Below, piece after piece: positions 1 through 16,239 of a stretch of 64,000 bases of DNA; position 1 is the stretch's first letter; each line of letters starts with the position of its first letter. The stretch spans positions 128,001 to 192,000 of the forward strand of contig CAVTHS010000002.1 in assembly GCA_963734535.1 (NCBI GenBank). Reading direction: 5' to 3'. The position numbers were made by a program, and so were the translations under genes. The notes under the pieces are model-generated. The model worked only from the letters and a program-made list of their open reading frames with translations, had not been told where the DNA came from and ran no database searches. The DNA is from an uncultured Chloroflexia bacterium (lineage in GTDB: Bacteria; Chloroflexota; Limnocylindria; Limnocylindrales; CSP1-4).

Positions 1-1149
1 GATGCGCCGCGCCTCGAGGAACGCTATCGCATCGCCGAACGGGCGATCTTCGAGGTCCTCGAGCGGACGGCGCGCCCGACCGCGGGCGAGATCGCCGGCC
101 CGGCGGCCCTCGGCGGACGCACGCCGGGCGGCAGCGCCGGGTCGATCGCCACGACCCCGCCGGCACCAAGGTCGGACGAGCCGAGAACGAGCCTTGGACG
201 GGACGCGTTCGAGGCGGCGGTCCGGGCAGCGAAGGATGCGATCGCGGCCGGCGAGGCGATCCAGGTCGTGCTCGCCCGGCGCGAGACCCGGGCGCTGCCG
301 GTCGGGCCCGACGGCCGCGCGGTCGACGGGATCGGCCTCTATCGCGCGCTCCGGCGCGTCAACCCCAGCCCATACCTGTTCTTCGTCCGGACGCCGTCCT
401 TCGAGGTGGTGGGCGCCAGCCCGGAGCTGCTCCTGCAGGTCGAAGGCGACCGCATGACCACCCATCCGATTGCCGGCACGCGGCCCCGTGGAGCCACCCC
501 CGCCGACGACGCGCGCCTTGCGGAGGAGCTTGCCGCCGACCCGAAGGAGCGTGCGGAGCACGTCATGCTCGTCGACCTGGGCCGGAACGACCTTGGGCGC
601 GTGGCGCGACCCGGCACCGTCCGCGTCTCGAAGTACATGGAGGTCGAGCGCTACAGCCACGTGCTGCACCTCGTGAGCCACGTGGAGGGACGGCTGGCCC
701 CGGGACTCGACGCGCTCGACGCGCTCCGCAGCGTCTTCCCGGCCGGGACCCTGTCCGGCGCCCCGAAGGTCCGCGCGATGCAGCTCATCGCGGCGGCGGA
801 GCGCGAGCGGCGCGGCCTGTACGGTGGCGCGATCGGCTACCTCGGCTACGACGGCAACCTCGACACCGCGATCGCCATCCGGAGCGCCGTCCTGAAGGAC
901 GGGGTGGCGCATCTCCACGCCGGCGCCGGGATCGTCGCAGCCAGCGTGCCGGAGCGCGAGTTCGAGGAGACCGAGCACAAGGCGGCGGCGCTGCGCCGGG
1001 CGCTCGAGCTCGCGTCCGGGGCCGGACGGGGCGGAACAGCCACGCGGGCCGGCGCCGATGCCGCGCCGGCCGCCGACACGGCCGGCGAGCCCGACACGGC
1101 GCCTGCATCCGATCCGGCGGGTCCAGTCTCGGCGGGAGGGTCGCGGTGA
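1..1149 (+). CDS. trpE: Anthranilate synthase component I, 5'-truncated by the window edge
   Basis: Frame is open from base 1. Motifs AGEAIQVVL, NPSPYLF, ASPELL, HPIAGTRPRG, KERAEHVMLVDLGRND, GTLSGAPKVRAM, AGAGIV. Confidence 0.95.
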   Translation, partial: DAPRLEERYRIAERAIFEVLERTARPTAGEIAGPAALGGRTPGGSAGSIATTPPAPRSDEPRTSLGRDAFEAAVRAAKDAIAAGEAIQVVLARRETRALPVGPDGRAVDGIGLYRALRRVNPSPYLFFVRTPSFEVVGASPELLLQVEGDRMTTHPIAGTRPRGATPADDARLAEELAADPKERAEHVMLVDLGRNDLGRVARPGTVRVSKYMEVERYSHVLHLVSHVEGRLAPGLDALDALRSVFPAGTLSGAPKVRAMQLIAAAERERRGLYGGAIGYLGYDGNLDTAIAIRSAVLKDGVAHLHAGAGIVAASVPEREFEETEHKAAALRRALELASGAGRGGTATRAGADAAPAADTAGEPDTAPASDPAGPVSAGGSR

Positions 1150-1898
1150 TCCTCGTCATCGACAACTACGACAGCTTCACCTACAACCTGGTCCAGGCGC
1201 TCCAGGTCGCGGGCGCGGCCGTCCGGGTCGTGCGGAACGACGCGATCGACGCCGCGGGCCTCGCCGCACTCGCCGACGATCCGGAGGCGGAGCTGCGGGG
1301 GATCGTGATCTCGCCCGGGCCGTCGGACCCGGACCACGCCGGTGTCTCGGTGCCGGCGGTCCGATTCGCTGCCCTGCGCCGGATCCCGCTGCTCGGCGTG
1401 TGCCTCGGGATGCAGTCGATGGCCGCCGCGTTCGGCGCCTCGATCGTGCGCGCCCCCACGCTGGTCCACGGCGAGGCCTCCACCGTTGCGCACGACGGCG
1501 CCGGGCTGCTCGCCGGCATGCCCGAGGAGTTCCGCGCGGCCCGCTATCACTCCCTGTGCGTGGATGCCGCCACGCTGCCGGCGGAGCTGTTCGTGACGGC
1601 TCGGAGCCTCGATGACGACGTCGTGATGGGGCTCCGCCACGCCACGCTGCCGATGGAGGGCGTGCAGTTCCACCCGGAGTCGGTGCTCACGCTCGACGGT
1701 CCGCACCTCCTGGCCAACTTCCTGCGGCTCGCCGGAGAGGGCGACGCCGGCGTCCTCGACGACGCCTCCGGGACCTTCGCGACGAAGGGCCTTGCGGCGG
1801 CGCCGGCCGACCCGACTCGCCCGGCCGTGTCGCCTCGTCCGGCCGCCCGGTCTCTGCCACCGACCCCGCCTCCCCCCGCCGTGGGCGCGATCCCGTGA
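1146..1898 (+). CDS. trpG: Anthranilate synthase component II (glutamine amidotransferase)
   Basis: IDNYDSFTYNL, ISPGP, GVCLG, RYHSL, QFHPES. GTGA overlap with the trpE stop. Confidence 0.95.
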   Translation: MILVIDNYDSFTYNLVQALQVAGAAVRVVRNDAIDAAGLAALADDPEAELRGIVISPGPSDPDHAGVSVPAVRFAALRRIPLLGVCLGMQSMAAAFGASIVRAPTLVHGEASTVAHDGAGLLAGMPEEFRAARYHSLCVDAATLPAELFVTARSLDDDVVMGLRHATLPMEGVQFHPESVLTLDGPHLLANFLRLAGEGDAGVLDDASGTFATKGLAAAPADPTRPAVSPRPAARSLPPTPPPPAVGAIP

Positions 1899-3009
1899 GC
1901 GACGCCGTCCGCGCCGCCCTCGCGACCGTGATCGACGGTGGAACCCTCGACCGTGACGAGGCCTACCGCGCGATGGGCGCGGTGATGGACGGCGAGTCGA
2001 CGCCCGCGCAGCTCGCCGCGCTGCTCGTGGCGCTTCGGATGCGCGGCGAGACGGTCGATGAGCTGACCGGGTTCGCCAGCGCGATGCGGGAGCGCGTCCT
2101 CCGCGTGGAGGCGCCCGCCGGGGCGATGGACATCGTCGGGACCGGTGGCGACGGCTCGGGCACGTTCAACATCTCCACGACGGCGGCCGTCATCGTCGCG
2201 GCGGCCGGCGTGCCCGTGGCCAAGCACGGCAACCGGGCGATCACGTCGCGATCCGGGTCCGCGGACGTCCTCGACGCGCTCGGCGTGCGGATCGACCACG
2301 ACGCGGACTCTGCCGCCGCCGCGCTCAGGAGCATCGGCTTCGCGTTCCTCTTTGCCCCCGGCTTCCACCCGGCCATGCGGCACGCAGGGCCGACCCGACG
2401 CGAGATCGGCGTCCGGACGGCCTTCAACCTGATCGGCCCGGTGACGAACCCGGCCGGGACGCGGCGACAGCTCGTCGGGGTCGGGGATCCGGTGGCCGCG
2501 CCGAAGCTGGCCGAGGTCCTGCGCGTCCTCGGGACGGAGCGCGCCCTCGTGGTCCACGGCGCCGGGGTGGACGAGCTGCCGCTCGACGGGAGTGGCGTCA
2601 TCCACGACGTGACGCCCGGCGGCGTCGTGCGTCGGGAGGTGGACGTGGCCGCGCTCCGGCTGGCCCGGGCCGCGACGTCGGAGCTCGCGGGCGGCTCGCC
2701 CGCCGAGAACGCCGCGCTCGTGGAGGCGATCCTGGCGGGCACGGAGCGCGGGCCGCGGCGCGACGTCGTCCTCCTCAATGCGGGTGCCGCGCTCATCGCG
2801 GCCGGCCGCGCGATGGACCTTGCCGATGGCATCGTCGCAGGCGGCGGCAGTCGTCGATTCGGGGGTCGCGACCCGGCTGCTGGCGCGACTCCGGGCCGAG
2901 CGGCTGGCTGCCGACGCGGCTGGAGCACGGGCGCGGCCGAGCGGCGGGTGCGGCCGAGGCGCCGGACGCCGTGCGCGTGCCCGCGCCATCGTCGGAGGCT
3001 CGAGCATGA
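1895..3009 (+). CDS. trpD: Anthranilate phosphoribosyltransferase, with apparent indels near the 3' end (~2835 and later)
   Basis: DIVGTGGDG, FNIST, KHGNR, SGSADVL, RTAFNLIGP. The C-terminal helix AAAVVDSGVATRLL is in another frame. End inferred from the ATGA overlap at 3006-3009. Confidence 0.85.
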
Positions 3010-5931
3010 CACTCACGGTCACGCCGCACGTCCGCGCCACGGCCCGGGCCACCACCGGCCCACGGGCCCGCCGGGGTGGGATCCTCGCCGAGATCGCCGC
3101 CCGGCGCGCGCACGACGTCGCCGCCGATCTCGGCGATGCGACGTACGCGGCGCTCGTCCGCGCGACCCGCGCCGCGCCCGCGCCCGCGCCCGATCGCCGA
3201 GCGGCTCGCCGCCCCGGGCCTGCACCTCATCGCCGAGGTCAAGCGCTCATCGCCGTCGGCCGGCGCGATCGCCCCGGCGGCGGACGTCGCTCCGGCGACG
3301 GATGTCGTCGCGCGTGCCCGCGCCTACGCGGCCGGCGGGGCGGCGGTCATCTCCGTCCTCTGCGAGCCGCACTGGTTCGGCGGGACGGTCGCGGATCTCC
3401 GGGCGGTGCGCGCCGCGGTCGCGATCCCGGTCCTCGCCAAGGAGTTCGTGGTCGATCCCCGCCAGCTGCCCGTCCTGCGCACGGCCGGCGCCGACCTCGT
3501 GCTCCTGCTCGCCGCCCTCCACCCCGCGCGGCGGCTGGCGGACCTCGTGCGGCGTGCCCTCGACCTCGGCATGGAGCCGCTCGTCGAGATCCACGCGGAG
3601 CGCGAGCTCGATGCCGCGCTGGCCAGCGGGGCGCGCCTGGTCGGCGTCAACAGCCGTGACCTCCGAACCCTCGAAGTGGACCCCGACCGCCCGATCCGCC
3701 TCCGGGGGCTGGTGCCGGGCGACCGGATCGCGATCGCCGAGTCCGGCGTCCGGGACGCCGGCACGCTGCGCCGCTGGCGCGCCGCGGGCTACGACGCCGC
3801 GCTCGTCGGCGAGACCCTCATGCGAGCGGCCGATCCGCGTGCGGCGGCGGCATCGTTCGTCGATGCCGGCACGGTCCCGGACGATCCGGGAGCCCGCGCC
3901 CGGGCCCCGTTCGTCAAGATCTGCGGGATCGTCGATGCGGCGGGCGTCGAGGCGGCGCTCGTCGCGGGCGCCGACGCGCATCGGCCTCAACTTCGTCGCT
4001 GGGACTCCGCGCGTGCTCTCGCTCGCCGAGGGCGCGGCCCTGGCACGCCGCGCGCGTGCGCGCGGCCCCGGGCGGCCGTGCGCCCGGTCATCGTGGCGAT
4101 CACCGCGGACGCGGACGCCACCCTGCTCAGCCGCGATCGTCCGCGACGTCGACCCGGATGCCGTCCAGTACGCGGGCGGGGAGTCCCCGGAATGGATTGC
4201 CGCCTCGCCGCGCCCAGCCTGGAAGGTGCTCCACCTGCCAGCGGACGCGGGCGACAGTGGCGGCCGACATCGCGGCGACGGTCGTAGCGGAGTCGGACGC
4301 GCGATTCCTCGCCGCCGGCGCGGAGCGGATCCTCCTCGACACCGCGGGCGGCCCGCACCCGGGTGGCACGGGCACGCAGGCGGACGCCGACGGTCGCCGC
4401 CGCGGTCGCCCGCGAGATTCCCGTCATCCTGGCCGGCGGGCTCAACCCGGCGAGCGTCGGGGCGGCGCTCCTGCGCCGTGCCCGCCGTCGGAGTGGACGT
4501 CGCGTCCGGGGTCGAACGCCCCCGCCTGGCCGGGGAGCGGCCCGACCAAGGATCCGCTCGCCGTGGCGCTCTTCGCGAAGCGTGCCCGCGCGGCGCGTTT
4601 CGACAGGCCGCACGCGCCCGCCCGTCCCGAGCCCGTGGATCCGGGCCTCCTCGCGGCCGACGCCGCCGGCCGCTGGGGCGTGGACCGATCGTTCGGTGGC
4701 CGCTACGTCCCGGAGACGCTCGTCACCGCGCTCCGCGAGCTGGAGGACGCGTACGGGGCGCTGCGGGACGACCCGGTCTTCTGGGCGGAGCTGCGGGCGC
4801 TCCTTGCGACGTACGCGGGCCGGCCGACCCCGGTCTACCGCGCCGACCGTCTCGCCGCGGACGTCCTGCGCACGGGCGCGGGAGCTCGACCCGACGGCCG
4901 ACCTTCCGGCTGGCCTCCGGATCTACCTGAAGCGCGAGGATCTCGCGCATACGGGCGCCCACAAGATCAACAACGCGCTCGGCCAGGCGCTGCTCGACGC
5001 GGCGCCTCGGCAAGACGCGCGTGATCGCGGAGACGGGCGCGGGCCAGCACGGCGTCGCGACCGCCACCGCCTGCGCGCTCCTCGGCCTGCCCTGCGTCGT
5101 GTTCATGGGCGCGGTGGACATCGACCGCCAGCGGCCGAACGTCCTGCGAATGGAGGCGCTGGGCGCCGAGGTCCGTCCGGTCACGTCGGGCACGGCGACG
5201 CTCAAGGACGCGGTCAACGATGCGATGCGCGACTGGGTCACGAACGTCGCGACGACCCACTACGTGCTGGGCAGCGCGATGGGCCCCCACCCGTACCCGA
5301 CCCTCGTGCGCGACCTGCAGCGCGTGCATCGGGGACGAGGCCGCGGCCCAGCTCCAGGCCGTCGAGGGGCGGCTGCCCGACCTCGTCGCGGCGTGCGTCG
5401 GCGGCGGCTCCAACGCGATCGGCCTCTTCTCGCGCTTCATCGGCGAGCCGTCCGTCCGGCTCGTCGCCGCCGAGGCGGCGGGGGAGGGGATCGCGACCGG
5501 CCGGCACGCGGCGGCCCTCGCGGGGGGCACGCCGGGCATCCTCCACGGCGCCCGGTCGTACATGCTCCAGGACCGGGACGGGCAGGTCACCGAGGCGCAC
5601 TCGCTCTCGGCCGGGCTCGACTACCCGGGCGTCGGGCCGCAGCTGTCGGCACTCTACGAGGCGGGGCGCCTGGAGGTGGTCTCGACGACCGACGACGACG
5701 CCGTCGCCGCGATCCGGGACCTGTCGCGCGCGGAGGGGATCCTGCCGGCCCTCGAACCCGCCCACGCGCTGGCCGCGCTCCCGCGGATCCTCCTGGGGCG
5801 CACCCGCGGGCCGAACGGGCCGCTTCCGCCAGCTGGCGCTCCCCGCCGACGCGCTGATTCTCGTCGGCCTCTCTGGCCGCGGCGACAAGGACCTCGCCGC
5901 GCTCGAGCGGCGGGAGGGGACGTCGCAATGA
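3006..5931 (+). CDS. Apparent TrpC-TrpF-TrpB fusion (IGP synthase, PRA isomerase, tryptophan synthase beta), broken by many single-base indels
   Basis: TrpC: [27 protein letters not shown]. TrpF: [24 protein letters not shown]. TrpB: [57 protein letters not shown]. The C-F and F-B junctions each lie within one open frame. Confidence 0.8.
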
Positions 5932-6809
5932 GCCCTGCGTCGGCCGCACCCACCAGCGGGAACCGCGCGACGATCGCGGGTCCCGCCCAGGGGACCGGGT
6001 CGACGCCGGGCGCGGCCCGCATCGCGGACGCGTTCGCGCGCGCCGGCGCCGCGAATCGCGCCGCGCTCATCCCGTACATCGTGGCCGGCTACCCGGACGC
6101 GGCCGGCAGCCTCGCGGCGGCCGTCACGGCGATCGACGCCGGTGCGGATCTCCTCGAGGTCGGCCTCCCGTACTCCGACCCGCTCGCCGACGGCGCCACG
6201 CTCCAGCGGGCGTCCGGCGTCGCGCTCCGCGCCGGCGCAACCCTGGACCGGTCCGTCGCGCTGCTCGCCGAGATCGCGGCCGCCCGCCCGGGCGTCCCGC
6301 TCGTGCCCATGTGCTATGCGAACCAGCTCCTCGCCGGGGGCGGCGGCGCGACCGCGGCGCGGCGGCTCGCCGACGCGGGCGCGTCCGGCGTGATCGTGGC
6401 CGACCTGACGCCCGACGAAGGCGCCCCGTTCGAGTCCGCCTGCCGGGATGCCGGCCTCGCGCTCGTGTACCTCGTCGCACCGACCACGCCGGCCGATCGG
6501 CGGGCCGCGATCGCGGCCAGGACCGGCGGCTTCCTGTACACGGTGTCGCTCGTCGGCGTGACCGGCGCGCGGACCAGCCTCCCGCCGGAGGTCGGCCGCT
6601 ACGTCCGTGCGGTGAAGGCGGCCAGTCCCGTGCCCGTGGCCGTGGGGTTCGGCGTCTCGCGCCCGGCGCACGTCCGTGCGCTCGTCCGGGCGGGTGCCGA
6701 CGGGGTCATCGTGGCATCCGCCCTGATCGATGCGCTGGGCCCGGACGGGCGCGGCACCGCCGGGCTCGGCCGGCTGGTCGGCCTGTTGCGGGCAGCGGCA
6801 GCGCGCTGA
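5928..6809 (+). CDS. trpA: Tryptophan synthase alpha chain
   Basis: [49 protein letters not shown] overlap with the trpB stop. Confidence 0.95.
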
Positions 6810-7587
6810 CGGTGGGGCAGGTCCGGCGCGTTCCGAGGCGGTGAGCGGCCGCGCACGTTCGGGTTGGACCCGAATGCGGACCAGCCACTTCGACCCGGCC
6901 GAATCCGGCCCTGCTACGGCGTCGCCCCTCGGCAGTCTGCAGCTCCGGCAGGAGGATCACGACCAGCCCCCCGTCCTTCGTGGGAACAGGGTCGTCGGGG
7001 CGCGCGTGGTGGACGCTCTCCACGGCCGGCGGCACCGTCCTGAACACCTGCTGGTCGAAGCCGACGAGGATTCCACCGATCGTCGTGCCTGCGGACTGAC
7101 GCTTCTTCCGCATCATCGGCTTCGAGGTGCCTCCCCGACGGCGCCCCTCTGTCCATCGTTCGACCCCACCGACCGTGTCCGGTCGCCCGACCCGCTTCTG
7201 CGCGTGCTGGACGCGCCGCGTCGCCGCGATCAGCTTCCGGTACAGGGCGACGAGCTCCGGGTCCGGGAAGAGCCCCGCCGATGCGCTCGTGACGCGCTCG
7301 AGGACCTCGGCCTCACGGGCAGGGTCGCGCACGGTTCGCCGTCCCGTCTCCTGCTTGACGCGGCCGATCTCGAGCGCGATCTGGGCGCGCTCATTGAGGA
7401 GCGCCACGATCTCGTGGTCGATTGCGTCGATCCGGTCCCGGAGCGGAGCGAGCGCCACGGCGGTGGGGTCGGCCGGTGAGGCAGCCTGGGCCGCCGAGCC
7501 AGTCGCGGCCGTCGAGCGCGTCCCGGCGCCCGAGCCCGTGCCGGCCGCCGGTTCGTCGCCAGCCAGCTCGTTCCGACGCTCACCCAT
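6706..7587 (-). CDS. Chorismate mutase (AroQ-type) at ~7190-7587. The frame runs on into an unrelated small protein, so the true 3' end is uncertain.
   Basis: [30 protein letters not shown]...[11 protein letters not shown]. Last gene of the aro operon. Confidence 0.8.
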
Positions 7588-8095
7588 TCGAGGCCTCCGC
7601 GTCCCCGGCGTGCGCCGGGATCAGGCCCGCGACCCAGCGCCTCGCGAGCTCCTCGAGCGCCAGCGTGTAGCCGCGCGCCTGCAGGCCCACGAATCGGGCC
7701 GCGGCGATGTCCTCCAGGAAGTTGACCCGGCGGAACGGCTCCCGCGTCGACGGATCGGAGAGGTGCACCTCCACGAACGGGCGTTCCACGGCCAGCAGTG
7801 CATCGCGAAGGCTGACCGACGTATGGGTGAGCCCGGCCGCGTTCACGATCGCCGCATCGAAGTCGCGCGCGTGGAGCCGGTCGATCAGCGCTCCCTCGTG
7901 GTTCGACTGGAAGAAGGTGATCATCACGTCGAGCTCCACGGCTCGCGCGGCGATCCCCGCGTTGACCTCGTCAAGCGTCTCGCGCCCGTAGATCGCCGGT
8001 TCTCGCGTTCCGAGCAGGTCCAGGTTCGGGCCGTTGAGGACGAGCACGCGCAGCACGCGCGGTGCCGCCCCACGTGCGGGCTCGGCCGCGCTCAT
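7580..8095 (-). CDS. aroQ: Type II 3-dehydroquinate dehydratase
   Basis: LNGPNLDLLGTREPAIYG, QSNHEG, THTSVSLRDA, EVHLS. Confidence 0.95.
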   Translation of the reverse strand: MSAAEPARGAAPRVLRVLVLNGPNLDLLGTREPAIYGRETLDEVNAGIAARAVELDVMITFFQSNHEGALIDRLHARDFDAAIVNAAGLTHTSVSLRDALLAVERPFVEVHLSDPSTREPFRRVNFLEDIAAARFVGLQARGYTLALEELARRWVAGLIPAHAGDAEASNG

Positions 8096-9732
8096 GCGTT
8101 CGCCGCCGCGGGCGTGCCGGCCAGGACGCTCCGGGCGGCCGCTGCGACAACGTCGTCGGGAACATCCGCGCGGACGGTCCAGCCCCCGGCGGTCGCGAGC
8201 ACCCAGCGGAGCCGGCCGTCGTGATGCTTCTTGTCGGTCGCGACCGCGTCGAGGACCCCGTCGGGCGGGTAGGGGAGCTCGGCGCAGCCGAGGTCCAGGC
8301 GGTCCAGCAGCGCCTCGACGCGTTCGGCTCGCTCGGGCGGCGTCGCCCCCACGGTGACCCCCACTCGGAGCGCGGCCCGAAGCCCGTACGCGACGGCCTC
8401 GCCGTGCAGGATCCCCCGGAAGGCAGCAACGGTCTCGATCGCGTGCGCCAGCGAGTGCCCGAGGTTGAGCGAGATCCGGCCGCCCTGCTCGCGTTCGTCG
8501 GCCGTCACGACCTCGATCTTGGCCGTCGCGCAGCGCTCCACGAGCTCGGCCATCGCGCCCGAGGCGAAGACGGCGGGATCGCCCGCCGCGAGGGCCGGAC
8601 CCTCGGCCTCGAGGAGCTCGAGGAGTCGCTCGTCGCCCAGCGTGCCCATCTTGACGGCCTCGCCGAGCGCAGCACGCAGCTCCCGCGGATCGAGCGTCCG
8701 GAGGAACCGGATGTCCGAGATGTTGGCGACCGCCTGGTGGAAGGCACCGACCAGGTTCTTCCCCTCGGGAAGGTCCACCGCCGTCTTGCCACCGATGGAG
8801 CTGTCCAGCTGCGCGACGAGGGTCGTCGGGACATGAACGAGCGGGACGCCACGGAGCCAGGTCGCCGCGAGGAAGCCGGCCGCGTCGCCAAGGGCCCCGC
8901 CGCCGATCGCGACGATCGGGTCGGTCCGCTCGGCCCGAAGGCGGGCCAGCTCGCGCGCCGCCTCCTCGATGACACCGAGGCGCTTGGCGTCCTCGCCGCG
9001 CGGCAGCAGGATCCGCTCGGTCGGGATCCCGGCCGCCGCGAGCGCGCCGGCGAGCGCGGACCCGGCCACCTCCCAGGCGCGCGGCTCGGAGACCAGGATG
9101 GCGCGGCGCGCCTCCAGCCGCCCGATGGCCGCCTCGACCCCGGCCGCAGCCGTCCCGTCGCCGAGCTCGTAGCGGCCGAGGGCGGTCGTCGCGCGCAGGA
9201 GCAGGGTGGCGTCGGGGAGCGCGTCGTCCAGGTGCCGCTCGAGCGTCTCGACGATCCCGGCCAGGCCAACGATGCCGTTCACCCGGAGCGCTGGCTCGTA
9301 GAAGGAGGCTCGCGTCGAGGCAAGGCTGCGCATCGCGGCGACGGGGTCGCGTCCGCTCAGCAGCGGTCGCGGCACCGGGGAGTTCCGAATTCGCTGCGCC
9401 AGGATCTCGGGTGGGGCGTCGAGCCAGGCCGCCATCCGACCGCGGTAGAGGCGCCAGCGATTGCGCGGATCCACGGGCGCGCCGCCGCCGGTCGCGATGA
9501 CGCGGGTCAGGCCGGGCCGAGGGTCGGCCGGCCCCAGCGCCTCGATGGCCCGGCGCTCCCGGGCGCGGAAGCCCGGCTCGCCTTCCTCCGCGAAGATCGA
9601 CGGGATCGGGCGACAGGCGTCGCGCTCGATCTCCTCGTCGAGATCGACGAATGCGGCCCCGTGGCGGCGAGAAAGCCGGCGTCCGACGGCGCTCTTGCCG
9701 CTCCCGGGCAGCCCGACGAGGACGAGGTCCAC
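8092..9732 (-). CDS. aroKB: Bifunctional shikimate kinase / 3-dehydroquinate synthase
   Basis: N-terminal GLPGSGKS, GEPGFR, ATGGG. C-terminal GGGALGDAAG, DSSIGGKT, KNLVGAFH, LNLGHSLAHAIE, HGEAV. Confidence 0.93.
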   Translation of the reverse strand: MDLVLVGLPGSGKSAVGRRLSRRHGAAFVDLDEEIERDACRPIPSIFAEEGEPGFRARERRAIEALGPADPRPGLTRVIATGGGAPVDPRNRWRLYRGRMAAWLDAPPEILAQRIRNSPVPRPLLSGRDPVAAMRSLASTRASFYEPALRVNGIVGLAGIVETLERHLDDALPDATLLLRATTALGRYELGDGTAAAGVEAAIGRLEARRAILVSEPRAWEVAGSALAGALAAAGIPTERILLPRGEDAKRLGVIEEAARELARLRAERTDPIVAIGGGALGDAAGFLAATWLRGVPLVHVPTTLVAQLDSSIGGKTAVDLPEGKNLVGAFHQAVANISDIRFLRTLDPRELRAALGEAVKMGTLGDERLLELLEAEGPALAAGDPAVFASGAMAELVERCATAKIEVVTADEREQGGRISLNLGHSLAHAIETVAAFRGILHGEAVAYGLRAALRVGVTVGATPPERAERVEALLDRLDLGCAELPYPPDGVLDAVATDKKHHDGRLRWVLATAGGWTVRADVPDDVVAAAARSVLAGTPAAANA

Positions 9733-9741
9733 GGCGGGTGC

Positions 9742-11071
9742 CTAGTCGTCCCCGCCGGAGCCGGCGGCTCCCGAGCCTCGGCCGGCGGGGGAACCGGCCC
9801 CGGCGGGCGATCGCGGCTGGCCGGGTCCGCCCGGGTCCGCGTCGGCGGCGTGGTCCGACCCGGGTCCGCGTTCGATCCGTTCGAGGTAACGCGCCAGGTT
9901 GTCCTGCACCTCGGTGAGCGAGTCGCCCCCGAACTTCTCAAGCACCGACGCGGTCAGCGTCAGGAGCACCATCGCCTCGCCGATCACGCCAGCCGCCGGG
10001 ACGACGCTGATGTCCGAACGCTCGTAGTGCGCCTTCTCGACCGCCTCGCCCGTCACCAGGTCGGCGGAGGGCAGCGGCCGCGCAAGCGTCGAGATCGGCT
10101 TCACCGCGCCGCGGACCACCAGCGGCTGGCCGTTCGTGATGCCACCCGTGAGGCCGCCGGCATTGTTCGTGCGGTGGATCCAGGCCCCGGCTCCGTCGCG
10201 GCGTTCGATCACGTCGTGGACCTCGGAGCCGAGCAGCCGGGTCTGCGCGAATCCGAGCCCGAGCTCCACGCCCTTCACGCTCTGGATGCTCATCACGGCA
10301 GCGGCCAGGGCGCCGTCGAGGCGGCGGTCCCAGTGGACGTGGCTGCCCAGGCCGATCGGGAGCCCGTGCGCGACCACCTCGAAGACCCCGCCGACGGTGT
10401 TCCCGAGCGAACGCGCCTCGTCGATCCGCGCCACCATCCGCGTCTCCGCGTCGGGATCCGGGCAGCGCAGCGGGCTCGCCTCGGCGTCCGCGCGGCTCCG
10501 GGTGCAGTTCGCCGGGTCGACGGCCACGCCCCCGACCTCCGCCGTGAACGACCAGACCTCGATCCCGAGCGCGGCAAGGAATGCGCGGCAGACTGCGCCC
10601 GCCGCGACCCGCGCGGCGGTCTCGCGCGCGGAGGCGCGCTCGAGCACGGGGCGAACGTCGGCGAAGCCGTATTTCAGGGCGCCGGCAAGGTCGGCGTGCC
10701 CCGGCCGGAGTCGAGTCACCGGCTGTGCGCGCAGGTTGCCCCCGGCAGCGAGCGCGGCCAGCTCCTCCGCCTGGGCGTCAGTGAGCGGCTCGACCTGCAT
10801 CACACGGGTCCAGCTGTCCCAGTCCCGGTTGCGGACCAGGAGGAGGATCGGCGAGCCGATCGTCAGCCCGTGCCGGATCCCGGCCAGGATCTCCGCCCGG
10901 TCCTGCTCGATGACCTGGCGCGCGCCGCGCCCGTAGCCGCCCTGGCGCCGCCGAAGGTCCCCGGCGATCGCGTCGGCCGTCACGGCGGATGCCGGCAGGC
11001 AGCCCCTCGAGCGTGGCGCCGAGCGCCGGCCCGTGCGACTCCCCGGCGGTGAGGAACCGGAACGCGGTCAT
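9742..11071 (-). CDS. aroC: Chorismate synthase, with one apparent indel at ~10990
   Basis: FLTAGESHGP in one frame. RRQGGYGRG, RPGHAD, ERASARETA, NNAGG and ERSD in another. Confidence 0.93.
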
Positions 11072-11961
11072 CCCGCTCCCGGGTCACCCGGCTCGGCCGC
11101 GGACCCGGCCTCGGAGGCCGTGACCGCGAGCTCGGATTCGAGCTTCTCGCGCATCAGCTCCACGGGCGCGGGCTGCCCGGTCCAGAGCGTGAAGGCCGCC
11201 GCTCCCTGGTGGAGCAGCATGAGCTCGCCGTTCTGGGTCGAGCATCCGGCGGCGGCCGCGTCGATCAGGAGCCGCGTCTGGGGCGGGTTGTAGATCAGGT
11301 CGAGGACGAGCAGGTCGCTCGGCAGCAGCTCGGCCGGGATGGGGCTGACGTCGCCCGCCAGCCCCACCGACGTGGCGTTGACGAGGACGCGGGCCCGGGT
11401 GAGCTCCGCCTCGATGATCGACTCGTGCCAGGGCATCGCGCGCAGCTCCATGTGGGCCGCGCTTCGTCCGAAGAACTTCACCAGCGCCTCGGCCCGATGG
11501 AGATGCCGGTTGAAGACGACGATCCGCTGGAATCCCTCCGTCACCAGGCCGTGAACCACGGCCCGGGCGCCACCGCCCGAACCCAGGACGACGGCCTGGC
11601 GGGGCATCTTCTGCTTGCCGACGAGGCGGTCGAGCGCGACCCGGAAGCCCGGGACATCCGTGTTGTGGCCGACGAGCTTCCGCCCCTCCTTCGTGATCGT
11701 GTTGACCGCACCGGTGGCGTGCGCTTCCTCGGTGAGGCGATCCATCAGCGCGGCGACCTTCTCCTTGTGGGGGATGGTCACGTTCGCACCCAGGAAGTCG
11801 TCTCCGCGCAGCTCCGTCATGGCGTCGGGAAGCTCCGCTGCGGTCCGGTCCCAGAGCTCGTAGGTCGCGGGGATTCCCAGGGAGTCCAGGGCAGCCTGCT
11901 GCATCGCGCCCGAGAGCGAATGGGCCACGGGATGGCCGATGAGCACGATCCGCTTCGTCAT
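11068..11961 (-). CDS. aroE: Shikimate dehydrogenase
   Basis: GHPVAHSLS, GANVTIPHK, GAVNT, NTD, GSGGGARA, NATSVG, DLIYNP. Confidence 0.95.
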   Translation of the reverse strand: MTKRIVLIGHPVAHSLSGAMQQAALDSLGIPATYELWDRTAAELPDAMTELRGDDFLGANVTIPHKEKVAALMDRLTEEAHATGAVNTITKEGRKLVGHNTDVPGFRVALDRLVGKQKMPRQAVVLGSGGGARAVVHGLVTEGFQRIVVFNRHLHRAEALVKFFGRSAAHMELRAMPWHESIIEAELTRARVLVNATSVGLAGDVSPIPAELLPSDLLVLDLIYNPPQTRLLIDAAAAGCSTQNGELMLLHQGAAAFTLWTGQPAPVELMREKLESELAVTASEAGSAAEPGDPGAG

Positions 11962-13307
11962 GCGCGCACCCTTTCCAGCTCGTCGAAGAAGCCCGGGTAG
12001 GAGACGTCGGCGGCGCCGGCGTTCCCGACGAGCGTGTTCCCCTCCGCGATGAGGCCCGCGATGGCGAACGTCATCGCCAGGCGGTGGTCGTCATGGCTGG
12101 CGACCGCAGCGCCCCGGAGCGCCCGGCCACCCTCGATCTCGATCACGTCTCCGTCCGCCCGAATCCGGGCCCCGAGGGCCGCGAGCCCGGCAACGATGCC
12201 TGCGACGCGGTCCGATTCCTTGTGGCGCAGCTCCCCGATGCCGCGAATCCGGCTGCGGCCGGACGCGACCGCGGCAGCGAGGCAGAGGATCGGGATCTCG
12301 TCGATCGCCCCCGCGACATCGGCGGGATCCACGTCGATTCCGTGAAGCGAGCTGCTCCGGACGACGAGATCGGCGATCGGCTCGCCGGACGCGCCGTCCG
12401 CGCCGGTCCCGACCGGCCGTTCTTCGATGTCGGCGCCCATCCGGCGCAACAGGTCGATGATCCCACGCCGCGTCGGGTTCGTCCCGACGTTCCGGATGAG
12501 CAGGTCGGCGTCGGGGTGGATGGCTGCGGCCACCAGCCAGAACGCCGCTCCCGAGACGTCACCCGGCACGCGTTCGTCGAGCGGATGCACCGCTGCCGGC
12601 CCGACGACCTCGTGGATGGCGCTTCCGTCGCCGAGGATGTCCGTGTGGACGGGCACGCCGCGGGCGCGCAGCATCCGCTCGGTGTGGTCGCGGGTCTGGA
12701 GCGCCTCGCGCACGACGGTCGGGCCCGCGGCGGCCAGCCCGGCAAGCAGGACGCACGACTTCACCTGGGCGCTCGGGACCGGAGAGGCGTGCTCGATCGC
12801 GCGGAGCCGTGCCGAACCGGTGATCGCGAACGGCGCCAGCGTGGTGTCGGCTCGCCCGGCGATCGCTGCGCCCATCGCGAGGAGGGGCGCGGCGATCCGT
12901 CCCATCGGCCGGCGCCGGAGCGACTCGTCTCCGTCGAGGATGCCGAACGCGGGCAGGCCGGCCAGGATGCCCGCCACCAGCCGGAACGTGGTGCCGGAGT
13001 TCTGGCAGTCCAGGACCGCGGCCGGCTCGCGGAGCGCCGCGCGGCCCGGTGAGACGACGAGGTAGTCCACGGTGCGAGCGTCACCGCCGAGTCGCGTCAC
13101 GCGCGCTCCCAGCGCCGATGCCACGCCGGCCGTGGCCCGCACGTCTCGCCCGTCACCGGCGCCCGTGATCCGGCTCTCGCCCTGCGCGAGGAGCGCCAGC
13201 AGGAGCGCCCGGTGGCTGATCGACTTGTCGCCGGGCAGCTCGAGCTGGCCCCGCAACCGGCCCGCCGGGCGCACGGTCACCTGGTCCGCGATGGGCGCGT
13301 CGAGCAT
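11958..13307 (-). CDS. aroA: EPSP synthase
   Basis: PGDKSISHR, NSGTT, RRPM, SAQVKS, RDHTERML, KESDR, DHRLAM. Start taken as the ATG at 13307. Confidence 0.95.
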   Translation of the reverse strand: MLDAPIADQVTVRPAGRLRGQLELPGDKSISHRALLLALLAQGESRITGAGDGRDVRATAGVASALGARVTRLGGDARTVDYLVVSPGRAALREPAAVLDCQNSGTTFRLVAGILAGLPAFGILDGDESLRRRPMGRIAAPLLAMGAAIAGRADTTLAPFAITGSARLRAIEHASPVPSAQVKSCVLLAGLAAAGPTVVREALQTRDHTERMLRARGVPVHTDILGDGSAIHEVVGPAAVHPLDERVPGDVSGAAFWLVAAAIHPDADLLIRNVGTNPTRRGIIDLLRRMGADIEERPVGTGADGASGEPIADLVVRSSSLHGIDVDPADVAGAIDEIPILCLAAAVASGRSRIRGIGELRHKESDRVAGIVAGLAALGARIRADGDVIEIEGGRALRGAAVASHDDHRLAMTFAIAGLIAEGNTLVGNAGAADVSYPGFFDELERVRA

Positions 13308-13315
13308 GGCCGCGC

Positions 13316-14380
13316 TCAGCTCGTCGAGCCGGCCGCAGAGATCGCGCCGCCGCGGGGCGCGTGGAGCGGCGCGGCCTGCGCGTGCACGGGCCGGACGGCG
13401 GCGACGAGCGCCGCGAACTGCTCCAGCGTCACGGACTGCTCGCCGTCGGAGAGCGCCTCCTGCGGGCGCGGGTGAACCTCGATGAGGAGGCCGTCGGCGC
13501 CGATCGCGGCCGCTGCCAGCGAGAGTGGTGCCACCAGCCATCGCTTGCCGGTCGCATGGGACGGATCGATGACCACGGGCAGGTGGGTCAGCTCGTGCAT
13601 CAGCGGCACGGCCGCGATATCGAGCGTGTTGCGCGTCGCCGTCTCGAACGTCCGGATGCCGCGCTCGCAGAGGATGACGTTCGGGTTGCCGCTCGACATG
13701 ACGTACTCGGCGGCCATCAGCCACTCCTCGATCGTGCCCGACAGCGCGCGCTTGATGAGGACGGGACGCCCGGTCTTGCCGACGGCCGTCAGCAGCGAGT
13801 AGTTCTGCATGTTGCGTGCACCGATCTGGAGGATGTCGGCGTACTCGGCCACCGGCTCCACCTGGCCGGGCTCCATCACCTCCGTGATCACGGGCAGGCC
13901 CGTCCTCTCGCGAGCCTCGGCCAGGAGCCGCAGGCCGTGAAGGCCCAGGCCCTGGAACGAATAGGGGCTCGTTCGCGGCTTGAACGCGCCGCCCCGCAGC
14001 ACGTCGGCGCCCGCCGCGGCGACCGCGTCGGCCGTCTCGAAGAGCTGCTCCCTGGACTCGACGGCACAGGGCCCGGCCATGATCGCGAGCGAGCCGTCCC
14101 CGATCCGGACGGCGCCAACCTCGACCACGGTGTCCTCGGGATGGAATGCCCGCGAGGTGAGCTTGAAGGGGCGGTTCGAGCGGGTCACGGACGCCACTCC
14201 CGGCAGCGCTCCCAGGCGGGCGCCGAGGCGGTCGAGCCGGGCTCCGCCCTCGCCCAACACGGCGATCACCGTCCCGCGCGAACCCCGGTTCTCGTGGGGC
14301 GTCAGCCCCTCGTCGAGGATCAGGCTGCGAACGGCATTGAGCGCTTCCTCGCTCGCCCCGAGCGACATGACGACGAACAT
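13316..14380 (-). CDS. aroF: DAHP synthase type I-beta with N-terminal regulatory domain
   Basis: [57 protein letters not shown]. Confidence 0.93.
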
Positions 14381-14430
14381 CTGGCTTCGCCTCGCGTCCC
14401 GATCTTCCCGTGCCGGGCATCCTGCTGGAC

Positions 14431-14463
14431 AAACAAAAAAGCAGAGGCTTGCGACCCCTGCTT
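14431..14463 (-). terminator. Intrinsic terminator (attenuator) upstream of aroF
   Basis: Minus strand reads AAGCAGGGGTC-GCAA-GCCTCTGC-TTTTTTGTTT: a stem with a GNRA loop, then a U-tract. Confidence 0.85.
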
Positions 14464-14508
14464 CCACCCGGCACGAGCCGTGCCTCGGAGCCTACGCCCC
14501 GCGGACGG

Positions 14509-14547
14509 TCATGCCGGGTCCATAAAGAAGAAGTGGTGCGCCTGCAC
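14509..14547 (-). CDS. Putative 12-aa Phe-rich leader peptide MQAHHFFFMDPA
   Basis: GTG CAG GCG CAC CAC TTC TTC TTT ATG GAC CCG GCA TGA, lying between a promoter and the terminator. Confidence 0.75.
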   Translation of the reverse strand: MQAHHFFFMDPA

Positions 14548-14556
14548 GGTGCCCGG

Positions 14557-14586
14557 ACGATAGCGGCCGCCGGCGGACCCTGTCAA
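14557..14586 (-). promoter_or_regulatory. Sigma70-type promoter of the aro operon
   Basis: Minus strand TTGACA-18 nt-TATCGT, 9 nt before the leader GTG. Confidence 0.65.
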
Positions 14587-14673
14587 CGCGCCGACCGATC
14601 GCGTCGCGGCGCACTCGGACTCCGCCGGCCCGGCTGCACCTCGGCGTCTGCTAGAATCCGCCGGCCGTGGCCC

Positions 14674-14765
14674 GGAGAGGTCGCATAGAGGCCTAGTGCA
14701 GCGGTTTGCTAAACCGCCATGTGGGGTAACCTGCATCGAGGGTTCGAATCCCTCCCTCTCCGCCA
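14674..14765 (+). tRNA. tRNA-Ser(GCT)
   Basis: Cloverleaf with long variable arm, GCGGT-TTGCTAA-ACCGC and encoded CCA. Upstream extended -10 TGCTAGAAT. Confidence 0.95.
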
Positions 14766-14773
14766 CCTCTCGT

Positions 14774-14849
14774 GCGCCCGTAGCTCAGTGGATAGAGCGC
14801 CAGGTTGCGGACCTGGAGGTCGTGGGTTCGAGTCCCGCCGGGCGCGCCA
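14774..14849 (+). tRNA. tRNA-Arg(GCG)
   Basis: 76-nt cloverleaf with anticodon arm CCAGG-TTGCGGA-CCTGG and CCA end. Confidence 0.92.
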
Positions 14850-14952
14850 CGCGCCTCCCCGTGGCCTCCAGGGCCCCCGGGTGACGACATCGCGCGCCCC
14901 CAGCCCGCCGATCGGCGCCTCAGTGCGCCATCCCGGCCGATCTCCAGCCGGC

Positions 14953-16239
14953 TCAGCGATGCAGGTTTCCCGCCGCCACGAAGCTCAGGCCGTGCTCGGT
15001 CAGGGCGCGCGCCGTGTGGTTCGTCGCGTCGAGCTTGTCCATGAAGTTGAGGGCGAGGTTCTCCCAGTCCCCGCTCTCGACGACCTCGGACTCCGCCCGG
15101 AAGTAGTCCAGGATGTCGGAAGGGTGCGCCCGGGCCCCGTCGACCGCCGGGTCGCCGCCCTCGTGCTTGGCCGAGATGTTGGGCACGTGGCCGGCCAACG
15201 CCATGAGCTCCTCGCGCCGGTCGTACGGCTGGAGGACGATGCTCTTGAACGTCTCGGTGATGTGGTGCTCGAAGCGGATCGCGTCCTCGAAGCCGAGCGC
15301 CCGCCGGATCTCGGCCGTGATCTCGAGCGTCTCGTTGTTCGTCGAGTTGCCCCAGTTGAAGCCGACGAGCGGCGACGTGCCGTCATCGCGGGCGAACAGC
15401 TTCGCCCCGACCATGGTCCACATCCCGGCATACGGGTTGTCGTTGCCCATGAAGACCGAGATCTTGAACTCGATGTCCACCCCCAGGCGGTGGAGGAGGT
15501 AGCCCGCCAGCACGGTCCCCGGGTTGATGTTGAGGACCTGGCGCACCCCGTACTCGGTGTAGTAGTGGAGGAACTCGTCGAGCCACAGGAGCACGTGATT
15601 GTTCGGCTGGCCGATCCCGCCGAAATACCCCGTGATCGTGGCGGGACCGCCGAGGTGGACGTTCGATCCGTCGGTGCCCTTCGTGTCGAGCGTCTCGACA
15701 TAGCTCGAGCCGATGATCTGCATGGCCGCCGCAATCGCCGGGAGGTCGCCCTCCGCCTCCTGCTCCTTCATGCGGCGGACCTGGATCCAGCGAGCCGGCA
15801 TGAGCGAGCGCTCCGCGATCGTCTTCCGGGCGGCCGCGATGACCCACGGGAAGTACTGGAGAGCGCTGACCTCGAGCGTCACCGCCATGTCGTCCGCGAA
15901 CGTCATCGAATCCGCGCGCGTGCCGAGGACGCTCCTGCGGAAGTCGGCGACGCCGACGAAGGCACCCCGGTCACGCTCCGCGGCGAGCCATTCGAGGTCC
16001 GCGAGGTATGCCGGGTGGTCGTTCCGGACGCGCTCGATGAGGGCCGGCAGCTGGCCCGCGATCCGCGCCCGGCGATTGATCTCCTCGGGTGTGCCGTACC
16101 TGGCGACGACGGCCAGGATGTCGTTGACGACCCGCGAATCCGGGTCGACCAGGAACGCGTTGAGCTCGTCGAGCCGTTCGGTCGGGATCGCGAGCCTCTG
16201 GCGGAGGTCGGCCCCGACCTCGATCACCGCGCTGGTCAT
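14953..16239 (-). CDS. Uncharacterised 428-aa enzyme-like protein coupled to panB
   Basis: ATG overlaps the panB stop (ATGA). Globular composition, e.g. ETLDTKGTDGSNVHLGG, EFKISVFMGNDN, RFEHHITE, SAKHEGGD. Confidence 0.85.
   Translation of the reverse strand: MTSAVIEVGADLRQRLAIPTERLDELNAFLVDPDSRVVNDILAVVARYGTPEEINRRARIAGQLPALIERVRNDHPAYLADLEWLAAERDRGAFVGVADFRRSVLGTRADSMTFADDMAVTLEVSALQYFPWVIAAARKTIAERSLMPARWIQVRRMKEQEAEGDLPAIAAAMQIIGSSYVETLDTKGTDGSNVHLGGPATITGYFGGIGQPNNHVLLWLDEFLHYYTEYGVRQVLNINPGTVLAGYLLHRLGVDIEFKISVFMGNDNPYAGMWTMVGAKLFARDDGTSPLVGFNWGNSTNNETLEITAEIRRALGFEDAIRFEHHITETFKSIVLQPYDRREELMALAGHVPNISAKHEGGDPAVDGARAHPSDILDYFRAESEVVESGDWENLALNFMDKLDATNHTARALTEHGLSFVAAGNLHR

Follow-up and report, generated by a model that had tools for sequence, protein, structure and literature searches.

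What switches on the shikimate operon of an uncultured Chloroflexota bacterium of the class Limnocylindria, and by what device? The question is raised by a leader region upstream of aroF, on the minus strand of a 64,000-nucleotide stretch of contig CAVTHS010000002.1 (GenBank assembly GCA_963734535.1). This whole stretch is the window of the analysis, and the positions below are counted from its first letter. The leader consists of a promoter, a short open reading frame (ORF1) with a run of aromatic codons, a long hairpin (P1) and an intrinsic terminator, and an earlier note, made from the bare sequence, had read it as a phenylalanine-sensing leader-peptide attenuator. Comparison with related genomes leads us to a broader reading, that of an aromatic leader-peptide attenuator in front of the shikimate operon, which we consider likely. 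In its more specific form, a ribosome-mediated attenuator would sense charged tRNA-Phe and tRNA-Tyr and control the common shikimate pathway together with chorismate mutase, and this form we still regard as probable. Judging from sequence comparison, the leader very probably allows the bacterium to turn on its entire shikimate operon under a shortage of aromatic amino acids.

A short leader ORF with aromatic codons beside the promoter

The leader begins with a −35 box TTGACA (14581–14586, minus strand, as are all features of the leader and the operon) that is followed, after an 18-nucleotide (nt) spacer, by a −10 box TATCGT (14557–14562); the earlier note had described the same promoter, and it is present as stated (14586–14557). 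A promoter scan found it to be the sole promoter-like site within positions 13500–15500, where shuffled sequences lead one to expect 0.1. A GTG at 14547, 9 nt beyond the −10 box, opens ORF1 (14509–14547), whose 12 codons and stop (GTG CAG GCG CAC CAC TTC TTC TTT ATG GAC CCG GCA TGA) encode the leader peptide MQAHHFFFMDPA; the TGA (14511–14509) lies within the 5′ strand of P1. Because the start codon comes only 9 nt after the −10 box, the leader mRNA would be leaderless or nearly so. The 12-codon ORF with TTC TTC TTT, 9 nt after the promoter, had also been seen in the earlier note, with the small correction that its start codon is GTG, not ATG.

Relatives of this leader were gathered in two ways. 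A search of 41 genomes with AroF returned 30 loci from two families (AroF identity 60–99%), all of which were examined, and promoter, ORF, P1 and terminator occur together upstream of aroF in all 30, with TTGAC of the −35 box kept throughout. Such a comparison of regions upstream of aroF had been proposed as a check of the attenuator reading, and its outcome is favorable: an aromatic upstream ORF, P1 and a terminator are conserved in 30 of 30 relatives, and the P1 apex covaries. The second search used the P1 base and both halves of the terminator stem as its pattern, left the leader ORF unconstrained and took one genome per species; it returned at least 118 stretches, of which 116 are leaders. 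A TTGAC −35 box was matched by regular expression in 143 of 146 leaders, and the gap between −10 box and start codon is 6–13 nt in most. Of 117 distinct leaders, 115 have a start codon in the frame of ORF1 3–15 nt downstream of the −10 box, and the other two frames have one in 19 and 2, which supports a near-leaderless leader ORF by comparison.

The codons proposed to be regulatory, TTC TTC TTT (14524–14532), are the 7th, 6th and 5th from the end of ORF1. Across 106 distinct ORF1 sequences, which are mostly 11–12 codons long and encode 101 peptides, the 5th codon from the end is aromatic without exception (78 Phe, 28 Tyr), the 7th is aromatic in 91%, the 6th in 62% and the 8th in 42%, with at most 10% at any other position. 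Phe and Tyr exchange for one another at the 5th and 7th positions from the end, and the commonest motif is FYF, spelled TTC at the 7th, TAC at the 6th and TTT at the 5th codon from the end. Phe at the 5th-from-last codon is TTT in all 78 cases, and at the 7th-from-last TTC prevails (61). Codon usage in the seven genes of the operon is 0/48 for TTT and 1/20 for TAT. A wobble-read and otherwise avoided codon (TTT or TAT) at the 5th-from-last position fits the expectation for a sensitive starvation sensor.

P1 includes the codons of the last two ORF1 residues, Pro-Ala (CCG GCA), and thereby fixes them. Outside these and the aromatic positions ORF1 is variable, which argues for a codon sensor rather than a functional peptide. 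Taken together with its conserved frame and position, ORF1 is very probably translated and senses its aromatic codons. The two His codons of the window's ORF1, which had been suggested as a possible second input, are not supported as such, since His is confined to the window's clade (9th from the end in 25 of 106 ORFs, 8th in 10 of 106). Trp is nearly absent in leaders of the window's order, with one TGG overall. Trp-bearing leaders in the window's order or family are L040 (MRHLFYWYRRPA), L160 (MTRFYWFTDPA) and L162 (MTTYFWYRSPA), and L057 was read by eye as having TGG TTC TTC TAC after an ATG, in a different frame.

The distance from the last aromatic codon to P1 is 5 nt in the window and its order, and 3–6 nt in five other families and in the sister family. 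With the 5th-from-last codon in the ribosomal A site, the first P1 pair lies about 12 nt from the first P-site nucleotide. A distance of about 12 nt from the P site corresponds to the mRNA entrance of the ribosome, and is also where frameshift-stimulating structures sit.

Phylogenetic extent

Among the matches listed from the pattern search, aroF follows the leader in 111 of 118, and the gene order is the same as far as the contigs reach. Five of the 118 have a flank of at most 208 nt, and two, L066 and L070, are chance matches without promoter or aroF. Nearly all of the matches listed are labelled Chloroflexota, Candidatus Limnocylindrales, Ca. Limnocylindrus or Ca. Aquidulcis. Typical Limnocylindria leaders also appear in bins labelled as other phyla, namely L075 and L091 (Verrucomicrobiia) and L108 (Ca. 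Methylomirabilota). L075 and L108 also carry the aro operon, and in L091 the flank beyond the terminator is only 25 nt long; we think these are likely mis-binned contigs.

Sampling of the phylum matched AroF in 264 of 301 genomes, and 38 upstream regions from the best matches were read. The leader was present in all 14 regions from the window's own family, and a variant of it in all 4 from the sister family in the same class (f3). A diverged leader was seen in 10 of the 20 regions from other families; of the 10 without one, 7 have coding sequence directly upstream. The four sister-family leaders (L163–L166) encode MFHTWFYV, MTYTWFYG, MNHPFWYYA and MNLVCWYYV, combining Trp with Phe and Tyr, and their P1 and terminator sequences differ from those of the window's order. 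The claim of Phe sensing therefore has to be widened: the Phe codons are indeed conserved, but the signal is not Phe alone, being Phe and Tyr, with Trp in addition in the sister family. In L170, L172 and L187 (family f31) and in L168 (family f25), the ORF was seen by eye about 45–50 nt after a promoter-like site, with GGAG before the GTG in L168. Since these leader ORFs are not leaderless, the leaderless arrangement is found only in some lineages. Within the genome, a strict scan for other units of a leaderless ORF and a terminator, in which a TTGAC promoter and a strong terminator were required, found only the aro leader.

P1, the terminator and a second ORF

P1 is a 54-nt hairpin (14466–14519), delineated by folding and comparison, whose base is the invariant pairing CCCGGCAUGA / UCGUGCCGGG and whose apex covaries. 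Its basal stem pairs ACCCGGCATGA (14519–14509) with TCGTGCCGGGT (14476–14466), and the 11-base-pair (bp) stem that the earlier note had recognized over the leader stop is the base of P1. Across 90 distinct sequences, P1 has on average 22 bp and −39.6 kcal/mol, with a mean z of −4.85 relative to shuffles; the basal 12 bp are nearly invariant, and the apical pairs alternate between CG, GC, AU and UA. RNAalifold on a MAFFT alignment recovered only the P1 base and the terminator. Because the MAFFT alignment misaligned the apex, we counted covariation on sequences anchored on the P1 base and loop. The 180-nt leader as a whole folds at −92.1 kcal/mol, versus −75.3 for shuffles (z = −3.9). A core of P1, GGCAUGAC/GUCAUGCC, is kept across Chloroflexota families and is read in all three frames (CGG CAU GAC, GGC AUG ACG, GCA UGA), so that its conservation must be at the level of the RNA, not the peptide.

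The intrinsic terminator (14431–14465) consists of GGAAGCAGGGG, a loop, CCUCUGCUUUU and a U-tract. Its hairpin (14465–14437, 12 pairs) abuts P1, its T-tract reaches to about 14431, and the aroF ATG follows at 14380, 50 nt beyond the U-tract. A hairpin with a U-tract about 50 nt before aroF is what had been claimed, and this much stands; the GNRA cap claimed along with it is not conserved, since the terminator loops vary among relatives. The mean terminator has 10.5 bp and −16.1 kcal/mol, together with a U-tract, and aroF starts 30–140 nt downstream across leaders. All 30 leaders found through AroF share the stem AGCAGRGG/CCUCUGCU without change, and the genome contains it a single time. P1 and terminator follow each other with no intervening nucleotide in 74 of 110 distinct leaders, and in none of the 110 do more than 4 nt separate them. 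In one relative, L153 (G226:C32:14161-14621, reverse strand), tandem repeats with units such as GGCGCCAGGAACGGTGTCAAGGACAGCGTGAGGAAC take up about 260 nt between terminator and aroF, and the terminator stem carries a compensated outer pair (GGCAGAGG/CCUCUGCC).

Further candidates at these structures were considered. A near copy of the P1 5′ base, CCCGGCACG (14409–14417), lies 14 nt beyond the U-tract and is complementary to the P1 3′ strand; as a core partner of that strand it was rejected, because motifs of its type occur in only 45 of 126 distinct downstream regions; it is specific to the window's clade and probably not part of the core element. Mimicry of a tRNA-Phe arm by the terminator 5′ strand was rejected as well, as the genome's own tRNA-Phe has no such similarity. 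Known RNA families offered no alternative identity for the leader: a search of the leader strand against Rfam gave no family match at E-values up to 10, with no match at the aro leader to the T-box (RF00230), to Phe_leader or to the other curated leader families.

A second ORF overlaps the first. ORF2 (14492–14512; ATG ACC GTC CGC GGG GCG TAG, six codons) begins with an ATG that overlaps the ORF1 stop (ATGA) and ends in the apical loop of P1; neither it nor the AUGA overlap is in the earlier note. A stop in the ORF2 frame lies within the P1 apical loop in 108 of 110 distinct leaders (TAG 60, TGA 38, TAA 10), and where the position of this stop shifts with loop size, the shift is 3 nt. Three leaders (L059, L147 and L057) have one extra nucleotide upstream of P1 and no ORF1 in the TGA frame; read by eye, their ORF1 takes the ORF2 frame and goes on until the stop in the loop. 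Some other families have, in place of ORF1 and ORF2, one long ORF that extends from the aromatic cluster as far as the P1 apex, and the ORF of the sister family and of L012 already ends at the P1 foot. Because the spacing is like that of known frameshift stimulators, we considered a programmed −1 frameshift by which ribosomes would pass from the aromatic codons into the ORF2 frame. This was rejected, as the P-site codon varies (TAC, TTT, CTC, CGC, GCC) and there is no slippery heptamer.

Search for an antiterminator

The earlier note could not assign an antiterminator helix, and this was correct, as none is detectable in 120 leaders. Folding of the leader with ribosome-footprint constraints, a check that had been suggested, was carried out with the footprint at every codon from the 7th-from-last of ORF1 to the ORF2 stop, and at each of these positions the terminator stays in the minimum-energy fold in 119–120 of 120 leaders. 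It also persists in footprint-masked folding of the leaders of other families. Duplex energies of segment pairs gave z values of 0.10 to 0.87 relative to shuffles, against −4.55 for the terminator itself, and cognate segment pairs were not more complementary than partners swapped between clades. As a positive control, the E. coli pheL-pheA leader (L192) formed its antiterminator with the ribosome at Phe codons 8 and 11 and kept its terminator at Phe codon 14 and the stop. Since the same masking procedure works on pheL-pheA, the aro leader really differs.

We nonetheless weighed a classical alternative-hairpin attenuator whose antiterminator has gone unrecognised, formed either by the aromatic codons and the terminator 5′ strand, extending P1, or by the P1 3′ strand and the terminator loop with the start of the 3′ strand. 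Several transcripts cut before the terminator 3′ strand do fold with the codons on the terminator 5′ strand (these were not counted), and by eye the codon run (UUCUACUUU) resembles the terminator 3′ strand (CCUCUGCUUU). In some clades, 7–8 bp can be seen by eye between the P1 3′ strand and the terminator loop, and double duty in a hidden pairing could explain why the terminator stem is invariant. Against controls, neither helix stands out: the codons against the terminator 5′ strand reach z = 0.10 relative to shuffles, with cognate partners no better than swapped ones, and the P1 3′ strand against the loop and 3′ strand gives −11.92 kcal/mol for cognate and −11.93 kcal/mol for swapped partners. 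The clade with the leader peptide 'MCAIYRFTCPA' shows only about 4 bp of the codon pairing by eye, and this pairing needs the codons to be free of ribosomes, which is the wrong sign for a starvation sensor. We consider a hidden antiterminator of this kind unlikely.

If the pairing of codons with terminator were nevertheless the true antiterminator, it would give a device of reversed sign, in which stalling at the aromatic codons leads to termination and smooth translation to read-through. Such a device would shut the pathway when its products are scarce, a runaway loop. To our knowledge, every characterised leader-peptide attenuator of biosynthetic operons works in the opposite way, and the same is reported of Corynebacterium glutamicum aroR. 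A reversed sign is thus extremely improbable.

The folding results could also be taken at face value. As the terminator is predicted in all states, it might be constitutive and leaky, and the ORF or the terminated RNA of about 115 nt might serve as a micropeptide or a trans-acting small RNA, with no sensing of amino acids. An attenuator-derived small RNA and a leader peptide with functions in trans have reportedly been described in Sinorhizobium (rnTrpL/peTrpL), and the invariant terminator stem might serve as a seed or binding site. On the other side, the peptide varies except at its aromatic positions and the last two residues fixed by P1, and regulation in cis is favored by the use of wobble-read codons at a specific position, by the constant distance from P1 and by an exclusive association with aroF (111 of the 118 matches listed). 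This explanation appears very unlikely to us.

Proposed mechanism

How the state of P1 reaches the terminator is something we infer from the arrangement of the parts. When Phe-tRNA or Tyr-tRNA is scarce, the ribosome would stall at the 5th- or 7th-from-last codon and P1 would stay closed; because the first P1 pair would lie at the mRNA entrance, some 12 nt away from the P site, a stalled ribosome would abut P1 without opening it. When these tRNAs are plentiful, the ribosome would enter and unzip P1, reaching the apex by a re-start at AUGA. A closed, GC-clamped P1, 0–4 nt from the terminator, may prevent the lowest terminator pairs from forming within the polymerase's RNA exit channel, with read-through as the result, and an opened P1 base may provide the single-stranded run-up that the terminator needs, with termination as the result. 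P1 is probably also a pause hairpin, keeping transcription and translation in step.

A steric link between P1 and terminator seems the most likely form of coupling because no RNA helix competes with the terminator. The ORF of the sister family and of L012 reaches no further than the P1 foot, so that opening of the basal pairs appears to be enough; and since such short-ORF variants would open only basal pairs, it must be the state of the P1 base, next to the terminator, that is sensed. The proposal accounts for the spacing of the codons, the abutment, the stability of P1 and the relay by ORF2, and its sign is biologically sensible. In the exact form specified here, we advance the steric link only tentatively. 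A further step would be to see in these leaders a phylum-wide class of ribosome-dependent attenuators without an antiterminator, in which an abutting GC-clamped hairpin blocks the terminator by its mere presence and unzipping by the ribosome switches the hairpin off. The placement of the sensing codons would park a starved ribosome exactly at the foot of the hairpin, and AUGA would relay a fed one to the apex. We raise this class as a possibility, and a doubtful one.

Several points weigh against the attenuator as we propose it. The antiterminator that defines a classical attenuator is missing from the 120 leaders, and as a consequence nearest-neighbor folding predicts termination in every state. 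For a steric link between P1 and terminator, no precedent was found in the accessible parts of the literature. Ribosome-free transcripts cut before the terminator 3′ strand can pair the aromatic codons with the terminator 5′ strand, and if that pairing is real, a stalled ribosome would favor termination, the opposite of the proposed sign. Two metatranscriptome contigs (X6 record 24 and X7 record 32) reach 15–25 nt upstream of the predicted start, although these are assembled contigs that do not give RNA ends and may derive from DNA. Finally, the steric link leaves unexplained both the conservation of the terminator stem AGCAGAGG/CCUCUGCU across families and that of the P1 core GGCAUGAC, read in three frames. 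These two conserved features keep two rivals alive, namely the hidden pairing of codons and terminator discussed above and a P1 that binds the polymerase or a protein.

In the latter explanation, P1 works in cis on the polymerase as an element of specific sequence, or is bound by a protein; the polymerase would resist the terminator as long as P1 is folded, and a ribosome translating through P1 would inactivate the hairpin. The put antiterminator RNAs of phage HK022, which act in cis on the polymerase, are a model for such an element. The conservation of the P1 core at the RNA level across families would suit it well, as would the failure to find a competing helix. P1 is, however, a plain hairpin with a freely covarying apex and no Rfam match, no candidate P1-binding protein was identified, and an element of this kind needs neither the strict abutment of P1 and terminator nor the 3–6-nt spacing of the last aromatic codon. 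We judge it quite unlikely and retain the steric link as the tentative explanation.

Three metatranscriptome contigs (X1 record 8, X3 record 16 and X6 record 24) extend across the terminator into aroF; being assembled, and perhaps derived from DNA, they carry no information on levels or conditions, and neither they nor the contigs that reach upstream of the start tip the balance for or against the attenuator.

The shikimate operon and its neighborhood

The operon downstream of the leader begins with aroF (13316–14380; Pfam PF00793, 1.7e-80), which encodes a 3-deoxy-D-arabino-heptulosonate 7-phosphate (DAHP) synthase with an N-terminal ferredoxin-like regulatory domain (PF18152). It continues with aroA for 5-enolpyruvylshikimate-3-phosphate (EPSP) synthase (11958–13319; PF00275, 3.6e-105), aroE for shikimate dehydrogenase (11068–11961), aroC for chorismate synthase (9742–10983, with an approximate start codon; PF01264, 2.2e-98), a fusion of aroK and aroB for shikimate kinase and 3-dehydroquinate synthase (8092–9732), aroQ for type II 3-dehydroquinase (7580–8095), and a gene for chorismate mutase (6706–7587). 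All of these assignments rest on Pfam matches, which bear out the gene order given in the earlier note, and together they make up all seven steps of the common shikimate pathway as well as the step that opens the Phe/Tyr branch. In the chorismate mutase, the CM_2 domain covers residues 49–128 of 293, and the sequence outside it, including the last ~165 residues, has no Pfam family match.

Upstream, a tRNA-Ser(GCU) and a tRNA-Arg(GCG) gene (14674–14849, plus strand) are divergent from the leader, about 90 nt upstream of its −35 box, and this neighborhood recurs beside the leader in several relatives. At the other end of the operon, the chorismate mutase gene (ending at 6706, minus strand) and trpA (ending at 6809, plus strand) are convergent, with a 3′ overlap of about 100 nt.

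The trp operon occupies positions 1–6809 of the plus strand of the window, with the chorismate-binding domain of TrpE at 202–981 and a TrpB fragment and TrpA at 5220–6809. It is preceded by a T-box-like leader (L188 419–691; contig positions ~127120–127392, just before the window), which matches over the full model length with 48.9 bits and E = 1e-9, below the Rfam cut-off of 93. From this T-box-like leader it would follow that Trp is sensed by a different device than Phe and Tyr. The locus would then show a division of labor, with a Phe/Tyr leader peptide for the common pathway and chorismate mutase and a T-box-like leader for the trp operon.

If the attenuator reading holds, the aro leader would be, for Chloroflexota, the first cis-regulatory element of aromatic amino-acid synthesis to be described, and a very well-conserved case, with 106 distinct leader ORFs and 90 distinct P1 hairpins. 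Its missing antiterminator, abutting hairpins, 3–6-nt spacing and AUGA relay would make it a test case for how the position of a ribosome can be passed to a terminator without a competing helix. An RNA-family entry built from it could help to annotate this group of soil and freshwater bacteria, most of which are uncultured.

Comparison with known systems

Leader-peptide attenuation is a known kind of regulation, and the version found here, unusually built, is an undescribed one. A literature search found no description of this Chloroflexota leader element. In Actinobacteria, a 2005 survey reported no RNA element for Phe or Tyr; Chloroflexi and aro genes go unmentioned in a 2010 survey of premature terminators, and a 2016 survey of leader genes treated Chloroflexi as too sparsely sampled. 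The leader shares with leader-peptide attenuators in general an ORF containing codons for the end product, a terminator before the first gene and a stop within or at the first hairpin; an antiterminator that shares a strand with the terminator was not found.

The closest likeness is to the aroR leader peptide of C. glutamicum, which was reportedly described by Neshat et al. in 2014. This aroR is a Phe-Tyr-Phe leader peptide before the DAHP synthase gene aroF (PMC11802643, PMC4046766, PMC7356990), and a review among them reports that stalling raises aroF transcription under Phe limitation. Both systems place a short FYF leader directly before a DAHP synthase gene, and FYF codons directly upstream of aroF are also the commonest arrangement here. 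They differ in phylum (Actinomycetota for aroR, Chloroflexota of the class Limnocylindria here) and in that a seven-gene operon follows here; with aroR the comparison is by description only. In Deinococcus deserti, leaderless leader peptides have been predicted in 14 cases (de Groot et al. 2014, PMC4007540). There, as is predicted here, the transcript starts at or next to the start codon of a short ORF in which the cognate amino acid is abundant, and amino-acid or tRNA-synthetase genes lie downstream, but the phylum is a different one and the description, in the parts of it at hand, includes no structure (PMC4007540). Given aroR and these leaderless leaders, the arrangement, of which the earlier note knew no description, is not without precedent. 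The leader's own traits are its two ORFs overlapping at AUGA, a 22-bp hairpin abutting the terminator, and the absence of a detected antiterminator.

Like the E. coli pheL-pheA leader (and pheM-pheST), the aro leader has a Phe-rich leader ORF, a stop in the first hairpin and a terminator before the structural gene. Unlike in pheL, where the Phe codons lie inside segment 1, the codons here stand just before the hairpin; the E. coli antiterminator is clear with the ribosome at Phe codons 8 or 11, whereas none was found here; and in E. coli a single gene is controlled, by a leader that has a Shine-Dalgarno sequence.

E. coli pyrBI and pyrE are known to be attenuated with no antiterminator helix: a ribosome that translates up to the terminator blocks it, so that close coupling gives read-through. 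The aro leader resembles these systems in that formation of the terminator would depend on the position of the ribosome with no antiterminator helix involved. It departs from them in that translation here ends about 30–50 nt before the terminator, and it is the stalled ribosome that must give read-through.

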